Shown: in pieces, positions 4,381 to 29,045 of the stretch | Position numbering within the stretch: position 1 is the first letter of the stretch | Layout of the letters: every line of letters starts with the position of its first letter | Source of the DNA: a virus | Lineage: Duplodnaviria > Caudoviricetes | Length of the DNA: 64,000 bases | IMG/VR virus record: IMGVR_UViG_3300046517_001147 | Location: 4,463 to 68,462 of that record | Direction: 5' to 3' (one strand) | Position numbers and translations under genes: made by a program | The notes under the pieces: model-generated | Databases searched by the model: none | Seen by the model: the letters and a program-made list of their open reading frames with translations, nothing else | What the model was told of the DNA's origin: nothing

Positions 4381-4591
4381 CTTTTTCCCTTACCTCGATT
4401 CCTTTGGATTTCGGCGTAGCAATGATGAACACGCCAATGTTCGGATGGTTGTCACGAACGTTCTTGAGTAGCGCGTTGGCCAATTCGTAACTAAATTTCT
4501 TCCCATCACAGACAAACAGATAGGAATGATCGGGCTTGAGTTCATAGCCTTTGACCAGGGCGGCGAGCGGTTTGTAGTCTTCTACTTTCAT
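4370..4591 (-). CDS. hypothetical protein
   Basis: ATG 4591 (MKVEDY) overlaps the stop of the upstream gene (ATGA). Confidence 0.6.
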   Translation of the reverse strand: MKVEDYKPLAALVKGYELKPDHSYLFVCDGKKFSYELANALLKNVRDNHPNIGVFIIATPKSKGIEVREKDGV

Positions 4592-4815: not shown

Positions 4816-5186
4816 TATTCTTTTTCTTTCTTGATGCGGACCTTCACAGTTTCTTTTTCGTGGACCATTTTTACTTCCACGCCATCGTGATTGTAGGATT
4901 CTTTTTTGTGTTTCTTCATTAGGGAGAGAAGTACATCTTTGGTTTCAACTTCTGAACTGGTCAGCTTCATCCGATCATCGCGGATGTTGGCATACTCTCT
5001 AGCCGCGTCCTCTAGCTCCTCGATCTCCGGGTCTTCCATGCCGGGAAGTCTGCTGGTCTTGCCGCGCTTCTTGTTTGCTTCGGAGAGCAGTTCCGGCTTG
5101 TGATCGTCCTCTTTCGGTCCGATTCCTTTGCGTCCGGTTTGCTTTGGCTTGTGCTTCGGGAGATAGTCCTCTACTTTTTTTGCCAA
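4815..5186 (-). CDS. hypothetical charged protein
   Basis: TTG 5186 with GGAGG RBS; own promoter TTGACC-N18-TAACTT upstream. Confidence 0.6.
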   Translation of the reverse strand: MAKKVEDYLPKHKPKQTGRKGIGPKEDDHKPELLSEANKKRGKTSRLPGMEDPEIEELEDAAREYANIRDDRMKLTSSEVETKDVLLSLMKKHKKESYNHDGVEVKMVHEKETVKVRIKKEKE

Positions 5187-5211
5187 TGAGATTCCTCCTA
5201 GGTGGAACGGG

Positions 5212-5231
5212 AGACCGCAAGTTAGCGTACT
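5212..5231. promoter_or_regulatory. putative repressor operator 1 (CGC-N6-GCG palindrome) over a leftward promoter
   Basis: agaccgc-aagtta-gcgtact; the N6 spacer is the -10 hexamer TAACTT on the minus strand. Confidence 0.6.
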
Positions 5232-5250
5232 GAAGTGTCGGAGGTCAAGG

Positions 5251-5490
5251 CTATTCTGCCAATGCTCCTGCCCACGGTTCATCTTCCCATCTACGTTGTG
5301 CAAGAAAAGTGCTCGCGTACGGGATATATATACCACCGCTTATTTGCCACTGCAGAGTTTGTTTCCAAAGCCCTAAGCCATGAACGGCCGATATTTTTTC
5401 ACTTGTGCTCATTTTGCGCCAAAGTTTCTCGGCCTTCATTCTTCCGACCTTTCTGGGGTAAATTTTCCAGAAACTCTCAAAGTCACTCAT
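5251..5490 (-). CDS. stand-alone phage replication-initiator C-terminal-like domain
   Basis: FESFWKIYPRKVGRMKAEKLW...YIPYASTFLAQRRWED, the conserved C-terminal module of phage replisome-organiser proteins; only 79 aa. Confidence 0.75.
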   Translation of the reverse strand: MSDFESFWKIYPRKVGRMKAEKLWRKMSTSEKISAVHGLGLWKQTLQWQISGGIYIPYASTFLAQRRWEDEPWAGALAE

Positions 5491-5860
5491 AAGGTAAACC
5501 CTCTCCTTCCCGCATTCTCCATAGCGGGTGACTCAACTGCATGGGAATAGTTGGCCTACACTCGCTATCGGTTCCCGCTGTTGCCGAAAGGTTGTGTAAC
5601 CTGACCAATGAGGCACAAATAAAAATTGCCCACTTGCGGTCGCCTGTTGACAGGGTGGATCAGAGCAGGACTTAGATAGTGAGCGGAAAAATAGCCCTTC
5701 ATTTGCGCAAAAGCGCCAAGAGTGACGGCCCCAGACTTGGAAAGATGCGGGAAATGTTCGCCCATTTGCCGATGGTCTTTCTCGAATTTGAAGGGTGAGC
5801 TTACCGGCGACCATCGGCAGATAATCTTACCGATAGAGCCCACCCTACGAATCCGTGATT
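5491..5860 (-). ncRNA. putative structured non-coding leader RNA (about 370 nt)
   Basis: Several 9-15 bp stems: 5837-5846/5792-5801, 5809-5819/5767-5777, 5738-5753/5507-5521; no credible ORF. Confidence 0.55.
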
Positions 5861-5865
5861 TATTT

Positions 5866-6063
5866 CTACCTCATACTTCGGTTGCGTGCAAGAAATTCTT
5901 TTTCAGCCATTCGTACCGTCCGCCGGGAAACTTCCGGCTCGATCGCGCAGACTGGACACTTCTTGGTGTCGAAGAAGACTAGCCTAGGATGGCTCCTGCA
6001 CATATTGGGCAGTTTGCGTTCGTGGATCATTTCGGCTAGGTCTGCGGAGCGCTTCTCGTTCAC
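5866..6063 (-). CDS. small Cys/His protein
   Basis: CRSH...CPVC; GTGA coupling. Confidence 0.5.
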   Translation of the reverse strand: MNEKRSADLAEMIHERKLPNMCRSHPRLVFFDTKKCPVCAIEPEVSRRTVRMAEKEFLARNRSMR

Positions 6064-6467
6064 TTCTTTTCCTCTGGTTGCGGTGGCGGTGGCTGGCGGT
6101 CGGCGTCGTGTTTAGCTTCCAGTCTGCCCATCTGCAAGCCGATGTCATGCGCTTCTTGGCAGCAAGGCGGCCATTCGTCGTCCGGCGTGCGCTCTGCGGT
6201 TTGGTGGGACTGGCTGCCCGCGTGACTGTCACCAGCCCCAATAGCAACGGTTTCAGCTACCGGGCTTTCCGTCGCTAAGGTCGTGCGTTCTGCGGTTGCT
6301 GCGGCCAGCGCGTCATAAACTCTTTTCCAAGCCTTTTGTAGCGTCAATCTGCCGTGATAGGGAGGAAATCCAGTTCCATCCTGTTTGTAGAGTTCTAAAA
6401 CTTCTACAATAGACTCTCGCAGCGCCTCACTCCCACGCGGCTGCCCTTCCTTGCGCTCGTCAGTCAC
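6060..6467 (-). CDS. hypothetical protein
   Basis: ORF coupled to both neighbours. Confidence 0.55.
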   Translation of the reverse strand: MTDERKEGQPRGSEALRESIVEVLELYKQDGTGFPPYHGRLTLQKAWKRVYDALAAATAERTTLATESPVAETVAIGAGDSHAGSQSHQTAERTPDDEWPPCCQEAHDIGLQMGRLEAKHDADRQPPPPQPEEKK

Positions 6468-6574
6468 TTGGCACGCTCCTTTAGGGCTCTAGCAATAGCG
6501 AACAGCGCGGTTGCAATGATGAACCCGCATCCAAAAATACTCAGCGCAATTTCAAATGCTCCGTTTTCGTACAC
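6464..6574 (-). CDS. 36-aa single-TM peptide (not in the ORF track)
   Basis: MYENGAFEIALSIFGCGFIIATALFAIARALKERAK; GGAG RBS; overlaps both neighbours. Confidence 0.5.
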   Translation of the reverse strand: MYENGAFEIALSIFGCGFIIATALFAIARALKERAK

Positions 6575-8636: not shown

Positions 8637-9046
8637 TTGCTTTGCGTCTTTAGACGTTCCTGTTCTTCTCGCTGTTTTTCTTTTTTCCAATAGTCTGCCG
8701 GTACTTCTATTAAATTCACCTGGGTCTCAAAGGGAAGCGATCTGGAAATTGCTACGGCGTCTTCTATCGTGAATCGTTTGGCCATCGTGTAATCTTCGGT
8801 TAGCGTGAACCGATAACTGCTGTAGTACATCGAAGGACTAAAATCCCACGTAAAAATGTAGTAGCAAGTCTTGTACTCCTGCATTTCTTTCGAGAATTCG
8901 CTCCACCGCATCCTAGTTCTGTGGCACAGCAGTCTCGCAGCATAGTGGCGCTTCGCCTTGGCTACGGCAACGCAGCGTTTATGGCTTTCCTTTGCTGCCT
9001 GTAACAGCGCTTCAATCTCCTGCGCGTATGGGTGTGGTTTCTTCAT
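8633..9046 (-). CDS. hypothetical protein
   Basis: ATGA-coupled ORF. Confidence 0.55.
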   Translation of the reverse strand: MKKPHPYAQEIEALLQAAKESHKRCVAVAKAKRHYAARLLCHRTRMRWSEFSKEMQEYKTCYYIFTWDFSPSMYYSSYRFTLTEDYTMAKRFTIEDAVAISRSLPFETQVNLIEVPADYWKKEKQREEQERLKTQSK

Positions 9047-10515
9047 GGCTGGAATAGGTTCCCCGCTGCTCCTGGCTCGCGGTCCCGGTTGAGGATCGGC
9101 ACTTTATTGTGCTCAAATTCGACGCGGCCGATGCGCTTTAGCCCGGTGATGTTGGTGTACTGGCCTTTGGTCTGAAAGAATACTTCGGCTTCTTTGCCTT
9201 TGCCTTTGTCGAGATAGCCGTATATATCCTTATCCCAACATCCGGCTTCGCGTTTGGTACCTTCGGGCGTCTTGATGGTGACCATTGCAAAAGACTTCTC
9301 ACCTTTGAGCGTAACGAATACGCGCTCAATGGTTCCTTTTACGATGAACGGCTCGGCGCCGGGGCTCTGTGATTTCCCGGCGCTGGCCGTTGTGGTTTTA
9401 GGGGTCTCCTTTCGTTCGGTCTTTCCCTTCGGGGGAAGGTCTTTAGGGAAAATCTCTACGACGCGATAGTTAAGTTGCTTGCCCATTGCGTGAATGGTCG
9501 GAACGTCGGTCGGCAGGATGTGCCACCAATCTTCGCGCCATGTAGCGGTGCAATGCTTCTGAATTAGTTCAACTAGGTCGCCAATGTCGCCGCGTATGAT
9601 CGTGCCTTGATCGGCGCTGTGGACTAACTCTATGGTTCCGCGGGGTTTAGCTTCTTCATGCTTGCTGACGGCTTCCGCTTTTCCTTCTTCCACGCCGCGG
9701 GTGCGCCATTCCTCTACAGTTAGTGCCAGTGAGGGATCAGACTTCTTTTTCAGTTCTGCGTCGGCTGCTTCGACGCGCGCAAGCGCTGCCTCCGCCATCT
9801 TTGCTTTCTCGCTACCCGGCGTGTGGCCGTGGTCCACGTTTTCTACAAGCTGTGGCGGTTCGTCGTCCACGTCGGCGTTTGGATAGCGATAGATGCGGCC
9901 TTCTGGCGTTACTCCACCGACTACGCGCACGTTTTCGAGTTCGCTTTCGTCCAGAAAAGCCAATCCGCAAATAGATAGTGTGGCGCGGCGCTTGGCTTTG
10001 GTGCTGGCCTTCATAATCGCATTGCAGCGTTCCGTGCCGGATAAGTCCTGGCGCTGCTGGTTGTAATACTTGAATAGCGCGACGGAACCAACGCTAAAGT
10101 CTGTACGGCCGGTCCGATCTTGCACCTTTACCTGGACGTGGCAGTAGTCGCCTTCGATGGTTTGTTGGTGGTCAATCACAGACACGGCGTGAATCTTGCG
10201 AAGCTGCTCGGTGCAAGATTTGTTGGCGTACAACTGTAGTCTGCTCTGGCCCTGGCTGCCCGGCTCCTTGAATAGAATGTATTCGAACGGCCGGGTTAGG
10301 TGGTTCACGCCAACGGAGAGACACACTTTTTTTACGTAGTCCACCCGTTCCTCTGGCGTGAGTGCGGACAGGTCTCCACCAATCAAAACTCTTTCCACCT
10401 TCTCGCCAACGGAAAGCTGGTCCAGCGGGACGATAGCCCTAGAAGGGAATTTCTTCACCGTCCGCCTTGGTATTAAACGGTTTACGGGTTTCTTTGCTCT
10501 TTTCGTTTTCGGCAT
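9043..10515 (-). CDS. single-strand annealing recombinase (RecT/Redbeta-like) with a C-terminal OB-fold-like domain
   Basis: GDLSALTPEERVDY..VC.SVG.N..TRPF and NAIMKASTKAKRRATLSICGLAFLDESE; ATG 10515 with AGGAG RBS. Confidence 0.7.
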   Translation of the reverse strand: MPKTKRAKKPVNRLIPRRTVKKFPSRAIVPLDQLSVGEKVERVLIGGDLSALTPEERVDYVKKVCLSVGVNHLTRPFEYILFKEPGSQGQSRLQLYANKSCTEQLRKIHAVSVIDHQQTIEGDYCHVQVKVQDRTGRTDFSVGSVALFKYYNQQRQDLSGTERCNAIMKASTKAKRRATLSICGLAFLDESELENVRVVGGVTPEGRIYRYPNADVDDEPPQLVENVDHGHTPGSEKAKMAEAALARVEAADAELKKKSDPSLALTVEEWRTRGVEEGKAEAVSKHEEAKPRGTIELVHSADQGTIIRGDIGDLVELIQKHCTATWREDWWHILPTDVPTIHAMGKQLNYRVVEIFPKDLPPKGKTERKETPKTTTASAGKSQSPGAEPFIVKGTIERVFVTLKGEKSFAMVTIKTPEGTKREAGCWDKDIYGYLDKGKGKEAEVFFQTKGQYTNITGLKRIGRVEFEHNKVPILNRDREPGAAGNLFQP

Positions 10516-10753
10516 GGCTCTCCTCAATCTTGGTGCATCTGAATGCGGGTTTGATCTGGCGTAGGAAGTGTGAACCCTTGGACTCGGCTGCTTGGAATGC
10601 TTCCCAGTCTGCGGCCGTAAACGGCGTGTAGTGGTACACCTTGTCCGGTTCGCCGGCCTTGCGCGATACGAAAGACAGTTCCAGCGTTTCGCTTGTCTGG
10701 TCGTAGGCAATGCCGGTCATGCCGGTCTTACTGGTGATCGGTGTTCTTTGCAT
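10439..10753 (-). CDS. KTSC-domain protein
   Basis: IAYDQTSETLELSF...VYHY...AFQAAESKGSHFLRQIK. Confidence 0.85.
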   Translation of the reverse strand: MQRTPITSKTGMTGIAYDQTSETLELSFVSRKAGEPDKVYHYTPFTAADWEAFQAAESKGSHFLRQIKPAFRCTKIEESHAENEKSKETRKPFNTKADGEEIPF

Positions 10754-12000: not shown

Positions 12001-12225
12001 TCAAGTCATCCAAAGAACTGCGGCAACTACGGCTAGGGTGATTACGACCTTCACGGCGAACCAGGCAAGCGCTTTAACAAGTTTCACGTTGGCGGCGCGG
12101 TCCTGCTTGCGTTCGCGAGCGTAGAATGCTCGCATGGCGTCTGCTTCGCGTTCGTCTTCAATGTCCAATGCCTTGATGCAGACTTCTACATCCTTACGGC
12201 TCGGTATGTTGAGACTGGGTTTCAC
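12001..12225 (-). CDS. C-terminally anchored membrane protein
   Basis: GTG with GGAGG; C-terminal TM segment. Confidence 0.55.
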   Translation of the reverse strand: MKPSLNIPSRKDVEVCIKALDIEDEREADAMRAFYARERKQDRAANVKLVKALAWFAVKVVITLAVVAAVLWMT

Positions 12226-12665
12226 GTTGTTTTCCTCCAAAGGATTGCGAACACTAAACCAGCAAACAGAAAAGCGATTGTGGAAGGTTCTGGGGTGGTA
12301 ATTGGAACGTCGCCAAAGTCGATTGAGGTCGGGCTGATCGAGACCGTCACATTGGGATTTATGGCTATGCGGGATTGCGTCCACACAACGGGCTCCGCTT
12401 TCTCGTCGGTTATTTCAGTTGGTCCACCTGGCCAAACGTAAAGCCCGATGGCTTTGAGTACTGCATTGATTGAAAGTTGTAGGGAGTCGGCGTTCGCGGC
12501 TATCTGCGCGTTTAGCAGGTTTCCCGCGAGGTCCAGGTCAACGCCTGGGGCGAGCGGTAACACGGTACTCGCGTCCAGTTCTGCGGCAACCTGCGTGATT
12601 GTGTCTGCGTGTGCTGTGGCCGCACAAAAGAAAGCTGCGGCGATTGCTAGGTTACGTAGTTGCAT
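12222..12665 (-). CDS. PEP-CTERM sorting-domain surface protein
   Basis: Signal peptide MQLRNLAIAAAFFCAATAHA-DTI; C-terminus TPEPSTIAFLFAGLVFAILWRKTT (PEP, TM helix, basic tail). Confidence 0.88.
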   Translation of the reverse strand: MQLRNLAIAAAFFCAATAHADTITQVAAELDASTVLPLAPGVDLDLAGNLLNAQIAANADSLQLSINAVLKAIGLYVWPGGPTEITDEKAEPVVWTQSRIAINPNVTVSISPTSIDFGDVPITTPEPSTIAFLFAGLVFAILWRKTT

Positions 12666-12951
12666 TTTTGTTTTTCTCCTCATAGGCTCGGCGTAGTAAA
12701 AGCTGTAGCGGGTCGGTCTCCGCTGCGTGATCTCCGCATCCGCATGGCAGCGCTACCAGGCCGTCGGCGTTGGTTCCCGAAACCCAAACGTCCTTCTCGT
12801 AGTCGCATCCGTATTTCGGGTCATGAAAGCTGATCGGGTGTCCGCATCCTTCGCAGTTGACCGGCTCCGGTGTACGGGTTTTCAAGTTTAGGTATTCGGT
12901 CGGGTCTTGCTTGCGTTCCAGTGCTAGTTCTACTGCTCGGTCGTAGCTCAT
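12652..12951 (-). CDS. Cys-rich hypothetical protein, first gene of the middle operon
   Basis: CEGCGH..H...C...CGC; GAGGAGG RBS. Confidence 0.6.
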   Translation of the reverse strand: MSYDRAVELALERKQDPTEYLNLKTRTPEPVNCEGCGHPISFHDPKYGCDYEKDVWVSGTNADGLVALPCGCGDHAAETDPLQLLLRRAYEEKNKNATT

Positions 12952-14930: not shown

Positions 14931-16010
14931 TTAGAATGTGGCCTCCATTAACTTACCCGCTGCGCGGTCCAGTTCGGTGCGGCCGTCGGCGTACTTGATC
15001 GTCTGAGAAAAGCGCGTGAGCCCTTGAACCATTCCCCAAACGGTGTTGCGTGGTCCGTCCTGGGCAACGTTGACGGCATCATAACCCGCGTCTATGGCTT
15101 TGCGGGTCAGTCCTGGGATGCGCTTCCCAAAGAGTGCGTCAAGTACTTGCTCTTTGTTGGCGCCAATGATGCGCGTTTTGGAAGCTGCGATCTGTGCTTC
15201 CAGGTCGGAAGTGGATTCCTCAGCGTACCGGCGGACGGCCGCAAAGTAATGTGACCACTTGCTGCGAGCGTTTCCAACGTGGCGGACGGAAATTTCCACC
15301 ACTTTAGAGGCTCCCCAAATGATGTGGTTCCCGCACATTTCGCGGTACAGGAAGCGGGTTAACTTGAGTGCTGAGGCTCCAACTTCGGAGTTTTGCACGA
15401 TGACACCCTTGTAAACGGCGCCATCTGATCCGCGTTCGGTAACGGTCAAGTCTGAATTGCGAAGGAAGGCGAACATATCATGGTCGCTGGCATACAGGGC
15501 GGGAAAGTCGTCCTCTTTGCAGCGAATATCAGGCATAGCCGGTGCCCATCCTTGCTGCTCCAATCCCAAGAGCCGTTCGGCTACCTCATAATTCCAGATG
15601 CGGGAATAGTCGTCGGTCACAATCGAGCGGAGCAGCAATCCGCCGTTCTCGTGGAACATCAAATTGGCCACGGCGTTGGCGGCGCCATTCTGCAAGCGTG
15701 CGGCCAGTCCGTAGTTAAGGTTCTGGCAAGCGAGGGTAGCGGGGAGTTCGCGCAAGTAGGATGCCGGTGCTTCGAGTCGGGCGCAAAGCTGGCCAAACGC
15801 CCAATGCGTGAGCTTCGCGGGTACTCCGGCCTTGCCTACCAGTTGCACATCACCGTCCACATTCTCAACGCGCAAGTCTGCGAAGGGCATACGCTTTTCT
15901 TTGGCAATGTCTGCGTAGTGCTTGGTTGCGTCGTACAGCGATTGCAGACTGGAAAACCGTTCGTCTGCTGGTCGTGTGCTCCATTGTTTATTTGCTGCAA
16001 AGAGTTCCAT
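14931..16010 (-). CDS. DUF932-family protein
   Basis: LYASDHDMFAFL, KGVIVQNSEVG, FLYREMCGNHIIWG, SVRHVG, TVWGMVQGLT. Confidence 0.8.
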   Translation of the reverse strand: MELFAANKQWSTRPADERFSSLQSLYDATKHYADIAKEKRMPFADLRVENVDGDVQLVGKAGVPAKLTHWAFGQLCARLEAPASYLRELPATLACQNLNYGLAARLQNGAANAVANLMFHENGGLLLRSIVTDDYSRIWNYEVAERLLGLEQQGWAPAMPDIRCKEDDFPALYASDHDMFAFLRNSDLTVTERGSDGAVYKGVIVQNSEVGASALKLTRFLYREMCGNHIIWGASKVVEISVRHVGNARSKWSHYFAAVRRYAEESTSDLEAQIAASKTRIIGANKEQVLDALFGKRIPGLTRKAIDAGYDAVNVAQDGPRNTVWGMVQGLTRFSQTIKYADGRTELDRAAGKLMEATF

Positions 16011-16876: not shown

Positions 16877-17085
16877 TAGAGGGTCACCGTCACGGCATAG
16901 CCTTCGCGCTTCCAATACTCAAAAGCGTTTACGGTACGGTAGCAACGCGCTTTGTAAGTGGGATTAACACACAAGCCGTCAATCCAGTTGTACGCGCTCT
17001 GCTGGTCGGGGAAAGTTCCGCAAACAACTCCGGTCTCGGCGTGAATGACTAGGGTTTGGGTTGAGGGAATGGCGGTGGGCAGCAT
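16876..17085 (-). CDS. hypothetical early protein
   Basis: TAATG coupling. Confidence 0.5.
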   Translation of the reverse strand: MLPTAIPSTQTLVIHAETGVVCGTFPDQQSAYNWIDGLCVNPTYKARCYRTVNAFEYWKREGYAVTVTL

Positions 17086-17843
17086 TAGAACACCACGTCC
17101 TGCTTGGCAGTCTTCGGGAATCCAGGGCGGGAAAACGGCCGGTCAAATGACGGAACGTGGCGCGGTGTCTGCTGTAAGCGGCGGGGGAGTTTCTCCGGTT
17201 CGCGCTTAAACTCGTCAATCATGTCCATAATGTTGACGGTCTCTCCACGCATGGCGCGGTCGTAGGCGGAGTCTTTCGGCGGTTCGGGAGTCTCGCGTAC
17301 CAGTTCGCAATTCTCGTCAAGCGTGAAAGTCTCAATCGTGGCTTCGGGGGAAAACTTCTCAATCTGCCGGTTAACATGCACGGCGGTTGAGTGGTCCAGC
17401 AATTCGGCTTCGTCGGTGTCTTCTTCACCGGCATACGGGATATTCTCCGGCGTGGCGTCGGGCTCATTGCCGTACAGAATGCCGTTGTAGCAGGGCATAG
17501 CAGGTTGAGCGGGAGTATAAGGTACGGTAACGCGGTCCGTGCCTACGAGCTCCGTCTGCGATACGTGGAATACCGTAACAGTCCATGGGCGGCGCTCTTC
17601 GCGGCCATTCTTGCCAGTCTTGGTGATAAAGGTGAGACACTTCACGCCATGTTCGCCCTTGCGGACCTGGCGGCCGTTCGCTTTCCATGCGTTGTACGAG
17701 AACACATTAACGCGGGGAATGATCTGATCTTCCGGGATTCCCTTCGCCATAAAGCCCCGAATGATCGGCGCATAATTGCTAAAGGATTGACCGGAAACTG
17801 CGCGGGTAAGTGCTTCTTGCTGGATTGCTGCTGAAGTGGCCAT
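17085..17843 (-). CDS. ArdC-like ssDNA-binding (antirestriction N-terminal domain) protein with an acidic tail
   Basis: VFSYNAWKANGRQVRKGEHG...TVFHVSQTE; AAGGAG RBS; first gene of the early operon. Confidence 0.75.
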   Translation of the reverse strand: MATSAAIQQEALTRAVSGQSFSNYAPIIRGFMAKGIPEDQIIPRVNVFSYNAWKANGRQVRKGEHGVKCLTFITKTGKNGREERRPWTVTVFHVSQTELVGTDRVTVPYTPAQPAMPCYNGILYGNEPDATPENIPYAGEEDTDEAELLDHSTAVHVNRQIEKFSPEATIETFTLDENCELVRETPEPPKDSAYDRAMRGETVNIMDMIDEFKREPEKLPRRLQQTPRHVPSFDRPFSRPGFPKTAKQDVVF

Positions 17844-17894
17844 CTGTAAAGCTCCTTGCCAACTGAGCCCTTTCGTCGGGCATCCGTGGCAAAA

Positions 17895-17926
17895 CAAATG
17901 TACGCTAAACTGCGGACAACGTCAAG
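17895..17926 (-). promoter_or_regulatory. early promoter with operator 4
   Basis: TTGACG-N17-TACATT on the minus strand; tgtacgc-taaact-gcggaca at 17899-17918. Confidence 0.75.
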
Positions 17927-20738: not shown

Positions 20739-22430
20739 GTGAGTCCTGCCGCAATCTCTGAACCTGTAGACGACGGTCAACGTAGTACTTCTTCGTTCTA
20801 TCAGCCATGGCCACATCAAATTGCTTTTCACTGTTCTCCTGCGAAGTATCGTTTACAGGTCGGCGGGTTTGGTTCTGGCAAGTCGCGGCCGCTGCTGATG
20901 GAAGCAATCTTTCACTGCTTAGAGTATCCGGGCTCGAATAGCATCATCCTGCGTAAGACAATTCCTGATCTAAAACGGACGGTGATCGACAAGTTTCTGG
21001 CGGATGTGCCGCGCTGGATGTACCAGTTCTACCACCAAGGCGACCACATTGTTTATTTCCATCCGCAACCCGAAGTGGACGCGAAAGGTAAGCCAACGGG
21101 TAAGATGCTGCAAAGCAAGTTGTTCTTTGGAGCGTGCGAACGCGAAGCGGATGTAGGCAAGTATCTTTCTACGGAGTACGTCTTTATCGGGTTTGAGGAG
21201 TTGGGAGAGTTTTCGTTTGCCATTTGGGATGCGCTGGCTGGCCGCAATCGCTGCCCGATCCCTGGAACACGTCCAACGATGGGTGGCGCCACTAACCCGA
21301 TGGGTGTCGGCTGGTCATGGATTAAGAAGCTGTGGAAGGATAAAAAACCGTTTCAAGGAATGGATGCGGAGAAATACGACGCTGCCGATTATGAGTACTT
21401 CCATTCGACGGTGGACAATAACCCGCTGTACGCGAACAACAAAGAATATATAGCGCAACTGGAACGGTCACCACTGCGAGATAAAATCCGGTGGGGCAAA
21501 ATGGATTCGGTTTCCGGTCAGTTCTTCGAGAACTGGGAGCCGGTCAGACATTGTAGAGCAGCGAGCGATTTCACTTTTGAGGACTGGCAACCAGTATGGG
21601 TGGGATGGGACTACGGTTTTGGTCACTATGCCGGTATTGTTTTTTTCACTAAAGCGATTCTAAAACCTAATCTCAAGTTTGGATGGGACAAGCCGCGGCG
21701 GGTCAATGTGGCCATTAAAGAGTTGGTTATGTCCGGTGCTGCCGATGGCCAATCGCAAGGCGCTACTCCGGAGGAGCAAGCTAAAGCGCTGATTGCGTGC
21801 ATCCCGCGAGTACAGATGCGGTCGCATAAAACCGGAGAAGATTTTGAGATGGAAGATACCTTCTCGTATGAGGAGCAAGAACGGGACAACGAGTACGGGT
21901 ATAAGTGGAATGTGGACTCGATCCACTTTTCCTGGGAGCGGTTTAACCGCACGGTGAGTAATCGCACGGTAGCCGATGAAGTGGGAGAATTGTTGCAGCG
22001 TGCGGGTTTGCCTTTGCCTACACGGTCAAACACGGATCGGGTGGCCGGATGGCAAAAGATTTATGATTTGCTGGACACCGATGAGTTCTTTGTATTACAA
22101 AACGAGTGCCCGACATTGGCCGAAGCGATACCGTTGCTGGTAAGAGGCGATGGGATAACCTGTTCGGCTGAGGATGTGGTCAAGCCAAAAGGACTAAGTT
22201 TGAATGACGATATTGCCGAAGCATGCCGGTACGGGATTGCGGGAACGTTGTTAGATGCTTCCGATGTTCCGGAGTCGGTCAAGTTGCGCGAAAGATTACA
22301 GGCAATTAAAGACCCCATGGCCAGAGCAGCAGCAGCGTATAGGGATTACAACTTGAAACAAGCAGCGCTGAAAAGACCGCCAAAGCCTATATCGGTTCCA
22401 AGCTGGTACAACAAATTGAGGCCGCAATGA
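20739..22430 (+). CDS. terL: terminase large subunit
   Basis: PWPHQ, Walker A GGFGSGKS, Walker B FIGFEE, ATNP, RNase-H-like VGWDYG, DDIAEACRY. Confidence 0.95.
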   Translation: MSPAAISEPVDDGQRSTSSFYQPWPHQIAFHCSPAKYRLQVGGFGSGKSRPLLMEAIFHCLEYPGSNSIILRKTIPDLKRTVIDKFLADVPRWMYQFYHQGDHIVYFHPQPEVDAKGKPTGKMLQSKLFFGACEREADVGKYLSTEYVFIGFEELGEFSFAIWDALAGRNRCPIPGTRPTMGGATNPMGVGWSWIKKLWKDKKPFQGMDAEKYDAADYEYFHSTVDNNPLYANNKEYIAQLERSPLRDKIRWGKMDSVSGQFFENWEPVRHCRAASDFTFEDWQPVWVGWDYGFGHYAGIVFFTKAILKPNLKFGWDKPRRVNVAIKELVMSGAADGQSQGATPEEQAKALIACIPRVQMRSHKTGEDFEMEDTFSYEEQERDNEYGYKWNVDSIHFSWERFNRTVSNRTVADEVGELLQRAGLPLPTRSNTDRVAGWQKIYDLLDTDEFFVLQNECPTLAEAIPLLVRGDGITCSAEDVVKPKGLSLNDDIAEACRYGIAGTLLDASDVPESVKLRERLQAIKDPMARAAAAYRDYNLKQAALKRPPKPISVPSWYNKLRPQ

Positions 22431-28284: not shown

Positions 28285-28779
28285 GTGAATAAAAAGAAAC
28301 CACACAACGGCAAAAAGCAACTTGACCGAATCGAGAAAAAAGAAGATAAAGAACTGAAGAAAATCGGGAAGCTGGAGCATGAAGTAGAAGAAATTGAACA
28401 GGCTCTCAAAAAGCCTAAGAAGAAAGCCCTTCGGAAAATCAATTATAAACAAGTAGGAGAAAAGCAAATGCCAACCGATTTCTCGATTGTTGCAGGAACT
28501 AGCGGAGTCTTTAGCGCTGTATTGACTCCTCCAGGTGGCGCGCAAGCGCCTGGTACGGTGCCGCAATGGGTGGCCAGCGATTCATCCGTTGTGCTCACAC
28601 CGACTTCTGACGGAATCAAAGTCGAAGCTGCCGTTCCCGCTGGATTTAGCGGAACCACTTTCGACTTGAGCCTTTCCGCCGTGTCGTCCGATTCCGGAGT
28701 GGGTACAGTCTCTAAGACCCATACCATTACCGTGAGCGCGGCGCCGCTCACCGCGATTGACTTCGGCCAGGATAGCTAG
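28285..28779 (+). CDS. Ig-like domain protein with Lys-rich N-terminal extension
   Basis: Basic coiled N-terminus, then a beta-rich domain; a second start MPTDF has its own AGGAG. Confidence 0.6.
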   Translation: MNKKKPHNGKKQLDRIEKKEDKELKKIGKLEHEVEEIEQALKKPKKKALRKINYKQVGEKQMPTDFSIVAGTSGVFSAVLTPPGGAQAPGTVPQWVASDSSVVLTPTSDGIKVEAAVPAGFSGTTFDLSLSAVSSDSGVGTVSKTHTITVSAAPLTAIDFGQDS

Positions 28780-28796
28780 ACTGTCCCGCGCCTACG

Positions 28797-28848
28797 AATC
28801 GGAACCTGCTTCGGACGTTATGACTCCGATGTGGGTTCCGGTTTTTTT
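28797..28848 (+). terminator. long-stem rho-independent terminator
   Basis: aatcggaacctgc/gtgggttccggtt stem followed by a T-run. Confidence 0.75.
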
Positions 28849-29045
28849 ATTGACATTCGAATCACATCCCTAGTAGCCTCACAAGCGTTGAGCGATGTAC
28901 TGGGCGCAAGTCCCAGAAAAAAATAGATACCTTCGCAAAACAATCCAAACGTATATCGGGACGCTGTAATTCTCTGCGATTGACTTCGTTTGAGAATCGC
29001 TGACGCTGCGTACTTCGCGTCAAGCTGAAACTGAGGTATACGTGT

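Follow-up and report, generated by a model that had tools for sequence, protein, structure and literature searches.

What fills a long gap in front of a phage gene that encodes only the last part of a replication initiator, and what might it do there? The window, the whole stretch of 64,000 nucleotides that was analysed, extends from base 4463 to the last base, 68462, of a virus record (IMGVR_UViG_3300046517_001147). The record is complete, measures 68,462 bp and ends in direct terminal repeats. A block of minus-strand genes runs through the window from about 18 kb down to 1.5 kb. Within this block, an intergenic gap of 375 nt (5491-5865) separates a 65-aa open reading frame (ORF; 6063-5866) from the following gene:

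5251-5490, minus strand: 79-aa gene for the stand-alone C-terminal module of a lambda-O-like initiator or replisome-organiser protein (PHROG profiles)

A preliminary description had read the gap as a structured RNA that either switches translation of this gene, or specifies or primes a replication origin in place of a missing protein domain.

The gene product matches phrog_270 (E 2.1e-15) only over profile positions 178-252 of 383, together with the equivalent parts of phrog_9474 (E 3.3e-15) and phrog_9327 (E 4.9e-13), which are initiator or primosomal families. The C-terminal FxxFWxxYPRK...YIPYASTFL module is present, and identity to the C-termini of the proteins at loci L147 and L009 reaches 54-59% (homologous loci are designated by L numbers throughout). 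In L016, L009 and L147, the module forms the C-terminus of proteins of 247-252 aa, and in L016 it is preceded by the Pfam domain Phage_rep_O (E 1e-22). The 79-aa protein has no Pfam match and lacks the Phage_rep_O / Phage_rep_org_N N-terminal domain; NCBIfam returned none, and a PDB sequence-profile search gave nothing below E 0.11. The gene therefore is what it had been taken for, an initiator C-terminal module without the N-terminal DNA-binding domain. Genes that encode such a C-terminal module on its own are met repeatedly, and the short-form homologues L002, L003 and L006 occur without the RNA described here. It had also been claimed that no helicase, primase or polymerase is present. Indeed, none was found among 47 ORFs compared with PHROGs or 33 ORFs compared with Pfam, and the 4.6 kb of genome outside the window consists of one giant ORF. 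This negative result carries little weight, given that the majority of the ORFs could be assigned to no family.

The gap is strongly folded on the strand of the gene. Its predicted folding energy in the sense direction is -135.5 kcal/mol, compared with -113.9 +/- 5.0 kcal/mol for 100 dinucleotide shuffles (z -4.30), and none of the shuffles folded as well. On the opposite strand, z is -1.10, and 18 of 100 shuffles were as good. Among 45 control windows of 375 nt from the same phage (20 shuffles each), one reached z -4.39 and one z -3.36. Because the fold is matched in one of the 45 controls, folding energy alone is suggestive and not decisive. In five homologues, the sense/antisense z scores are -3.18/-2.17, -2.92/-2.25, -1.60/-0.56, -4.10/-1.97 and -4.70/-2.80, so the sense strand is the lower in all five. 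Two checks had been proposed for a structured RNA, namely folding energy against shuffled controls and covariation among homologues. The first came out as above, and compensating changes are present in both of the modules described below. Together, the z score, the weaker antisense fold and the covariation in relatives bear out a structured RNA on the gene-sense strand of 5491-5865. The most extreme control window is 28501-28875 on the plus strand; the surrounding 28.0-29.05 kb contains short ORFs only, plus a GC-rich hairpin with a T run behind it.

Relatives of the leader RNA occur in six other distinct phage or metagenome sequences: L010, L140, L142, L147, L151 and L155. The family belongs to related phages from soil. 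Of these, L010 is a metagenome contig and L140, L142, L151 and L155 are IMG/VR contigs, all obtained from protein-guided scans and anchor patterns. With blastn, the window aligns to L151 at 79.6% over 142 nt (E 4e-29), to L142 at 72% over 155 nt and to L010 at 74.6% over 181 nt. A sister phage contig, L001, is identical to the window over 5053-5994 and hence carries no comparative information. The element is single-copy within the window, and leader length across the family ranges from 300 to 580 nt. In five of the six sequences that bear the core, the gene that begins where the RNA ends is homologous to the 79-aa gene. The exception is L155, where hhalign could not relate the gene behind the core to the 79-aa family (probability 0.2).

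The family is rare and very small, amounting to 6-7 distinct sequences. Blastn against phage GenBank records gave no matches. A 14-mer scan of viral contigs returned 119 stretches, 80 of which were compared by blastn, with none similar; two longer patterns recovered only the near-identical sister contig. An anchor pattern found 64 loci in genome contigs, none of them homologous, and two further anchor patterns gave 29 and 19 stretches in viral contigs, with the flanks of the family (by eye) in the five known contigs only. Chance matches accounted for 3 of 8 viral loci in the first anchor scan and 43 of 48 with the two further patterns. The protein-guided scan of genome contigs yielded no further member. 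Among the sequencing runs listed for the stretch, none is an RNA run, and contigs from four DNA runs contained no variants inside the RNA. A comparison of the core DNA with 5, then 401 genomes of one phylum (taken as Acidobacteriota) gave no matches and is uninformative on absence.

No known family describes the element. The Rfam scan that had been suggested matched no family to the window's RNA: against Rfam 15, the window segment 4500-7000 gave at E <=10 only three chance-level matches (10-17 bits, E 2.9-6.1). Across the five homologous loci, the only match at E <=1 was to YrlA, in L155 alone. ARAGORN found no tRNA or tmRNA in the window or in the five homologous loci. The leader RNA is real and conserved, and it has so far gone undescribed. 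Two short-form homologues have leaders of their own, of about 270 nt, that are unrelated to the window's (L003, 2729-3000, z 0.12; L006, 2728-2994, z -1.45). These two are alike over the first ~55 nt only, a terminator-like hairpin included; the L003 leader contains interleaved complementary segments by eye, yet folds no better than shuffles.

The RNA consists of two modules. The first is a hairpin whose loop is complementary to the sequence just past its base:

5758-5858, minus strand: module 1, hairpin-pseudoknot domain (model R1, 104.7 bits)
5855-5850/5788-5783, minus strand: helix P1 of module 1
5846-5837/5801-5792, minus strand: helix P2 of module 1 (stem A of the preliminary description), AGGGUGGGCU with AGCUCACCCU
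5835-5829/5808-5802, minus strand: helix P3 of module 1
5819-5809/5777-5767, minus strand: loop-to-flank helix S2 (stem B of the preliminary description), UGCCGAUGGUC with GACCAUCGGCA, interleaved with stem A

Both stems had been noted before, the second as part of a pseudoknot or switch, and both lie where they had been placed, with pairs that are conserved through compensating changes in relatives. A covariance model, R1, was built from the nested hairpin only, with S2 left out. It scores 104.7 bits in the window, 101.7 in L142 and 72.0 in L151, and it recovered one new case, L147 (805-904, 34.3 bits, E 3e-6). Run over 94 sources (219 kb in total), R1 found nothing beyond these four phages. 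Across the four sequences, in an alignment that had been fitted to the R1 model, 92.9% of the cells are paired, compared with 74.8 +/- 3.3 after shuffling (0/500 as high) and 36-52% for slid partners, and both sides have changed in 11 of 23 pairs. For both modules, covariation statistics are weak at 6-7 distinct sequences, and the shuffle control ignores relatedness.

As MAFFT misaligned the S2 arms of L151 and L147, S2 was tested by shuffling the loop and not by counting pairs. The longest Watson-Crick helix between loop and flank is 11, 13, 11 and 11 bp in the four phages, while shuffled loops average 4.0-4.9 bp and equal the observed helix in 1, 0, 0 and 0 of 5000 trials. The arms themselves differ between phages while their complementarity is kept: the loop arm is UGCCGAUGGUC in the window, UGCCGGUUGUC in L142 and UUGACAGUGAC in L151, and the 11-bp pairing of L147 is UUUGCCGUGAG. 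UGCCG is common to three of the four S2 arms, the 3' arm is flanked by conserved GAAAG and AAAUG, and L010 has a 6-bp loop-loop complement at the place equivalent to S2. The hairpin comprises ~23 bp, with interruptions, and only 5-6 nt link its base to the 3' arm of S2. With a linker this short, coexistence of hairpin and S2 would need a sharp bend or an open P1; otherwise, the two would have to alternate, or S2 would have to form between molecules.

One-mismatch copies of the 11-nt S2 target occur in the window at 21740, 24679, 38157, 49275 and 63074, with 1.2 expected from shuffles (all matches). All five lie in plus-strand coding regions, four of them in the orientation of the loop arm. As additional targets they were dropped and judged an effect of coding composition.

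The second module is a core of ~190 nt, made of nested helices and invariant unpaired blocks, that reaches the ribosome-binding tract:

5491-5690, minus strand: module 2, the core, in six homologous sequences
5655-5646, minus strand: conserved block CCCUGUCAAC
5608-5603/5556-5551, minus strand: helix Pa
5598-5594/5561-5557, minus strand: helix Pb
5590-5584/5571-5565, minus strand: helix Pc, with loop CAACAGCGGGAA at 5583-5572
5528-5524/5513-5509, minus strand: hairpin Pe, just before the ribosome-binding tract
5508-5498, minus strand: ribosome-binding tract AAGGAGAGGGU

The core is present in the window, L010, L140, L142, L151 and L155. In a six-sequence MAFFT alignment made from sequence only, Pa, Pb, Pc and a subgroup hairpin, Pd, fall in register. 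Pairing stands at 86.2%, compared with 69.0 +/- 2.5 after shuffling (0/500) and 37-44% in slid controls. Both sides have changed in 15 of 26 pairs, where shuffling gives 7.4 +/- 1.8 (0/500); Pa is invariant and hence uninformative on covariation. The invariant unpaired blocks CCCUGNCAAC, CUCAUUGGUC and GGCCAACU suggest tertiary contacts or a bound partner. In riboswitch terms, a conserved core with invariant unpaired blocks is present, and a conserved masking helix and a terminator were not found.

Between the modules lies a stretch that tolerates change:

5691-5757, minus strand: variable middle region (from the alignment), containing the 5' strand of a 15-bp stem (5753-5738)

Relatives carry large inserts here, and in L142 and L155 these take the form of a long inserted hairpin. 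The 15-bp stem (5753-5738/5521-5507) had been described as closing a domain of ~250 nt and overlapping the ribosome-binding tract, and the translational-switch reading depends on it. The stem does exist in the window, where its duplex is better than 973 of 1000 shuffles (27/1000 as good). It is not conserved, and the same test fails in L142, where 664 of 1000 shuffles were as good. According to base-pairing probabilities, the predicted partner of the ribosome-binding tract differs in each of the six homologues. The proposed switch is not supported in this form, nor is masking of the ribosome-binding tract. Another candidate, an ACCCU/AGGGU pairing over the tract offered by RNAalifold, was no better than shuffles in all six sequences and was rejected.

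Putative signals for transcription and translation frame module 1 on either side:

5863-5891, minus strand: sigma-70-like promoter by eye, TTGCAC (5891-5886), 17-nt spacer, TAGAAA (5868-5863)
5763-5765, minus strand: conserved AUG, one base past the 3' arm of S2, opening a 66-codon frame to 5565

The predicted transcription start in the window is near 5856, and the module 1 hairpin begins a few bases past it. The promoter scan is blank at this site because TAGAAA lacks a T at position 6. At the homologous place, the program detected promoters in L142 (TTGACA-18-TAGATT), L151 (TTGACG-18-TACTAT) and L147 (TTGACA-16-TACAAT, with 11 of 12 matches). The promoter-like sites stop 3-9 nt before module 1 in L142, L151 and L147, and also, by eye, in the window. 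The search for terminator-like sites gave none in the window or in the leaders of L142, L140 and L147 on the strand of the RNA, and none in L010 and L151 on either strand. Antisense promoter-like sites, by consensus matches only, lie at a homologous spot of the core in L010 (1092-1121, minus) and L142 (1352-1379, minus), each with its -10 element inside an A/U-rich linker; the window, L151 and L140 yielded no such site.

AAAUG is aligned in all four module 1 sequences, and this anchor is absent from L010, L140 and L155. Frames read from the conserved AUG span 66 codons in the window and 20 in L147, with 53 and 128 in the other two (L142, L151), and they end 75 (window), 99 (L151), 89 (L142) and 45 nt (L147) before the gene start. 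Since the frame stops 45-99 nt short of the gene, the two are unlikely to be coupled by termination and reinitiation in the classical way. No ribosome-binding sequence is recognisable in front of the leader frame, and its peptide is not conserved among the module 1 sequences. The sense strand of the leader (5488-5866 in the window, and in homologues) is nevertheless poor in stop codons. Compared with dinucleotide shuffles, the longest open frames are significant in L142 (187 codons, p 0.006), L155 (at least 159 codons, p 0.004), L151 (p 0.036) and L010 (p 0.048), and not in the window (p 0.118) or L140 (p 0.71). The conserved AUG and long frames without peptide conservation hint that the leader may be translated.

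The explanation that best fits these observations, with about an even chance of being right, is that the region, a structured leader RNA that is modular and conserved, would have a promoter to itself and would control in cis the downstream replication gene and the operon behind it. This reading leans on analogy with phage P1 c4 and the plasmid rep leaders. A transcript from the leader promoter would enter the gene for the stand-alone C-terminal module. Within it, module 1 would alternate between the full hairpin and the loop-to-flank pairing, the linker being hardly long enough for both. Since the loop-to-flank helix adjoins the conserved AUG, its formation would block initiation there. Translation of a long, sequence-unconstrained leader frame through the core would then set expression of the downstream gene, whether it opens the core or keeps transcriptional polarity from setting in. 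Candidate triggers for such a switch are a protein, an RNA or a small molecule.

A similar logic operates in plasmid rep leaders and, in phage P1, in the c4-icd-ant operon. Pseudoknotted structured leaders are classic plasmid copy-number controls. In phage T4, gene 32 has an autoregulatory pseudoknot at the 5' end of its leader, followed by an unstructured A/U-rich tract up to the ribosome-binding site. The element shares with it the position of the pseudoknot and the association with a phage replication-protein gene; the difference lies in the large structured core, which stands here in place of the unstructured tract. The c4 RNA of phages P1 and P7 makes two short pairings with its target, and this complementarity is phage-specific. 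Here, the loop forms one pairing of 11-13 bp with a target one base before the conserved AUG in all four sequences, a likeness to c4 in placement though not in the number of pairings, and the present RNA has no Rfam match. In P1 and P7, regulator and target lie on one transcript, with the target at the start of a leader gene that lies upstream of the regulated gene (PMC8198154, in the portion of the text available).

Leader-RNA control of plasmid replication genes is exemplified by the repZ-repY pseudoknot of IncI1/IncB plasmids and by tap-repA of IncFII plasmids (PMC8053102, available in part). From what that portion describes, the plasmid systems share with the present element a structured leader before the initiator gene, a hairpin loop that pairs distally, and a leader frame whose peptide is immaterial (PMC8053102). 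Yet the loop partner in IncI1/IncB lies beside the rep ribosome-binding site, whereas here it follows directly after the hairpin, ~270 nt from that site (the 3' arm of S2, 5777-5767, is 277 nt upstream of the start codon at 5490). Likewise, the leader frame of IncI1/IncB ends at or overlaps the rep start, and here it ends 45-99 nt before the gene. Opposite the leader, IncI1/IncB plasmids have an antisense RNA gene; the signals seen on that strand here are the promoter-like consensus matches of L010 and L142. The element also differs in belonging to a phage, in having a leader of 300-580 nt and in having a second conserved core. Comparable elements before phage replication-organiser genes were not found, either as an Rfam 15 match or as a relevant title in a limited full-text literature search. 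The candidate stands out for its covariation support, its two separable modules and its unusual topology, in which a loop pairs beside its own long stem, an arrangement that would require the RNA to bend sharply, to switch or to act in trans.

It is rather unlikely that the RNA lies close to the promoter in order to act on RNA polymerase or on the fate of the mRNA, and not on translation. It might be a processive antiterminator, of which the put RNA of HK022 is an example, or stabilise the 5' end of the mRNA; alternatively, it might function on its own, as a ribozyme, protein scaffold or ligand-binding aptamer. Module 1 begins a few nucleotides past the predicted start in all four phages and lies 100-270 nt from the gene, and the invariant unpaired blocks of the core point the same way. 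So does an insert that resembles a tRNA mimic in L155: at 1316-1421 on the minus strand of that locus, a T-arm, a loop-closed acceptor stem and a D-arm are carried on a long stem. This is the segment that matches Rfam YrlA (RF02553), at 27.7 bits and under the gathering score of 69. The available part of PMC4201824 describes for YrlA an arm order of T-arm, D-arm and loop-closed acceptor stem, and the L155 insert alone shares these three elements in the described order (PMC4201824). It differs in sitting inside a larger leader, and the window's own RNA is without such an insert; L142 has a long stem as in L155 at the same place, with another apex. Against an action on polymerase or mRNA fate, no known family is matched, no downstream terminators were found that would need to be overridden, and the family is very small and always next to a gene start.

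A bolder proposal, which seems doubtful, sees in the element a kind of large and modular phage RNA not described before. Close to the promoter, module 1 would act as a self-complementary specificity module, and module 2 as a separately mobile core whose invariant unpaired nucleotides serve to bind a ligand or host factor. Specifying the origin or licensing replication would then fall to the two modules in place of the N-terminal domain and the iterons of lambda-O-type initiators, with a Y-RNA-like tRNA mimic recruited in one lineage.

Also improbable is a self-targeting antisense regulator of the P1 c4 or P4 CI kind, in which the hairpin would be excised as a small stable RNA and its loop would pair with the S2 target in trans, resulting in phage-specific immunity or copy control of the replication operon. 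Perfect complementarity over 11-13 bp that nonetheless differs from phage to phage is what such a regulator would show, and the target adjoins the conserved AUG. Pairing within one molecule would, moreover, be sterically strained, given a 5-6 nt linker and a ~23-bp stem. In P1, c4, its target, icd and ant all belong to one operon (PMC8198154, in the part available). However, there is no Rfam match at E <=10, hence none to the C4 family if it is in the library. UGCCG in three of four arms also means that diversification has been modest, and the five one-mismatch targets in the window are all coding, four of them in the wrong sense.

Equally poor prospects attend an origin-associated RNA, whose transcription would activate or prime replication, for example through an RNA-DNA hybrid, with the 79-aa module recruiting a host helicase and the RNA replacing iterons and N-terminal domain. 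Its appeal comes from position. The full-length relatives L016 (2281-2457), L017 (278-396) and L148 (1368-1433) have 4-5 copies of iteron-like direct repeats in the part of the gene immediately ahead of the C-terminal module, the place that the RNA occupies in the window, and no other replication gene is recognised in the genome. Repeats placed inside the gene in this way resemble an origin of the lambda type; at the equivalent stretch, the repeat families of L147 and L009 comprise only two copies. Lying at the iteron position of relatives, the RNA allows a connection between RNA structure and the initiation of phage replication to be put to the test. Yet 5491-5865 contains no iterons and one weak two-copy family, and its conserved feature is strand-specific pairing with G-U pairs, not sequence repeats. 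Module 1 also precedes a full-length 247-aa initiator, in L147, and for this module the earlier suggestion of an RNA that substitutes for the absent DNA-binding domain is therefore weakened. With module 1 before a full-length initiator there and the core before an unrelated gene in L155, the modules are separable, and neither simply replaces the missing domain.

Finally, it is very improbable that the region is protein-coding, either as a small gene or as a decayed or frameshifted N-terminal part of the initiator: long sense-strand open frames occur in four of six sequences, and the window has frames of 92 and 93 aa, but substitutions are flat over codon positions (9/11/11, 18/20/21 and similar), single-base indels break the frame inside the most conserved blocks, the open frame at the same conserved block differs between subgroups (L140 has no long frame), the overlapping ORFs have no Pfam or PHROG matches, and the N-terminal domains of five full-length relatives match nothing in 5491-6500, or anywhere else in the window, the tblastn matches of these full-length proteins being confined to 5248-5517.

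Elsewhere in the genome, a giant open frame, over 1,500 codons long, begins with the record itself (G000:C1:1-4600) and extends into the window at 1-666 on the plus strand; beside the terminal repeat, it probably encodes a fibre- or adhesin-like protein. The early region on the minus strand (9043-10710, 14931-16010 and 17085-17897) includes a 555-aa ORF without a family, a protein of the DUF932 family (E 1.2e-7) and another that weakly matches the N-terminal domain of ArdC (E 9e-5). At 12222-12683, an ORF of 153 aa has a weak PEP-CTERM-like motif at its end.
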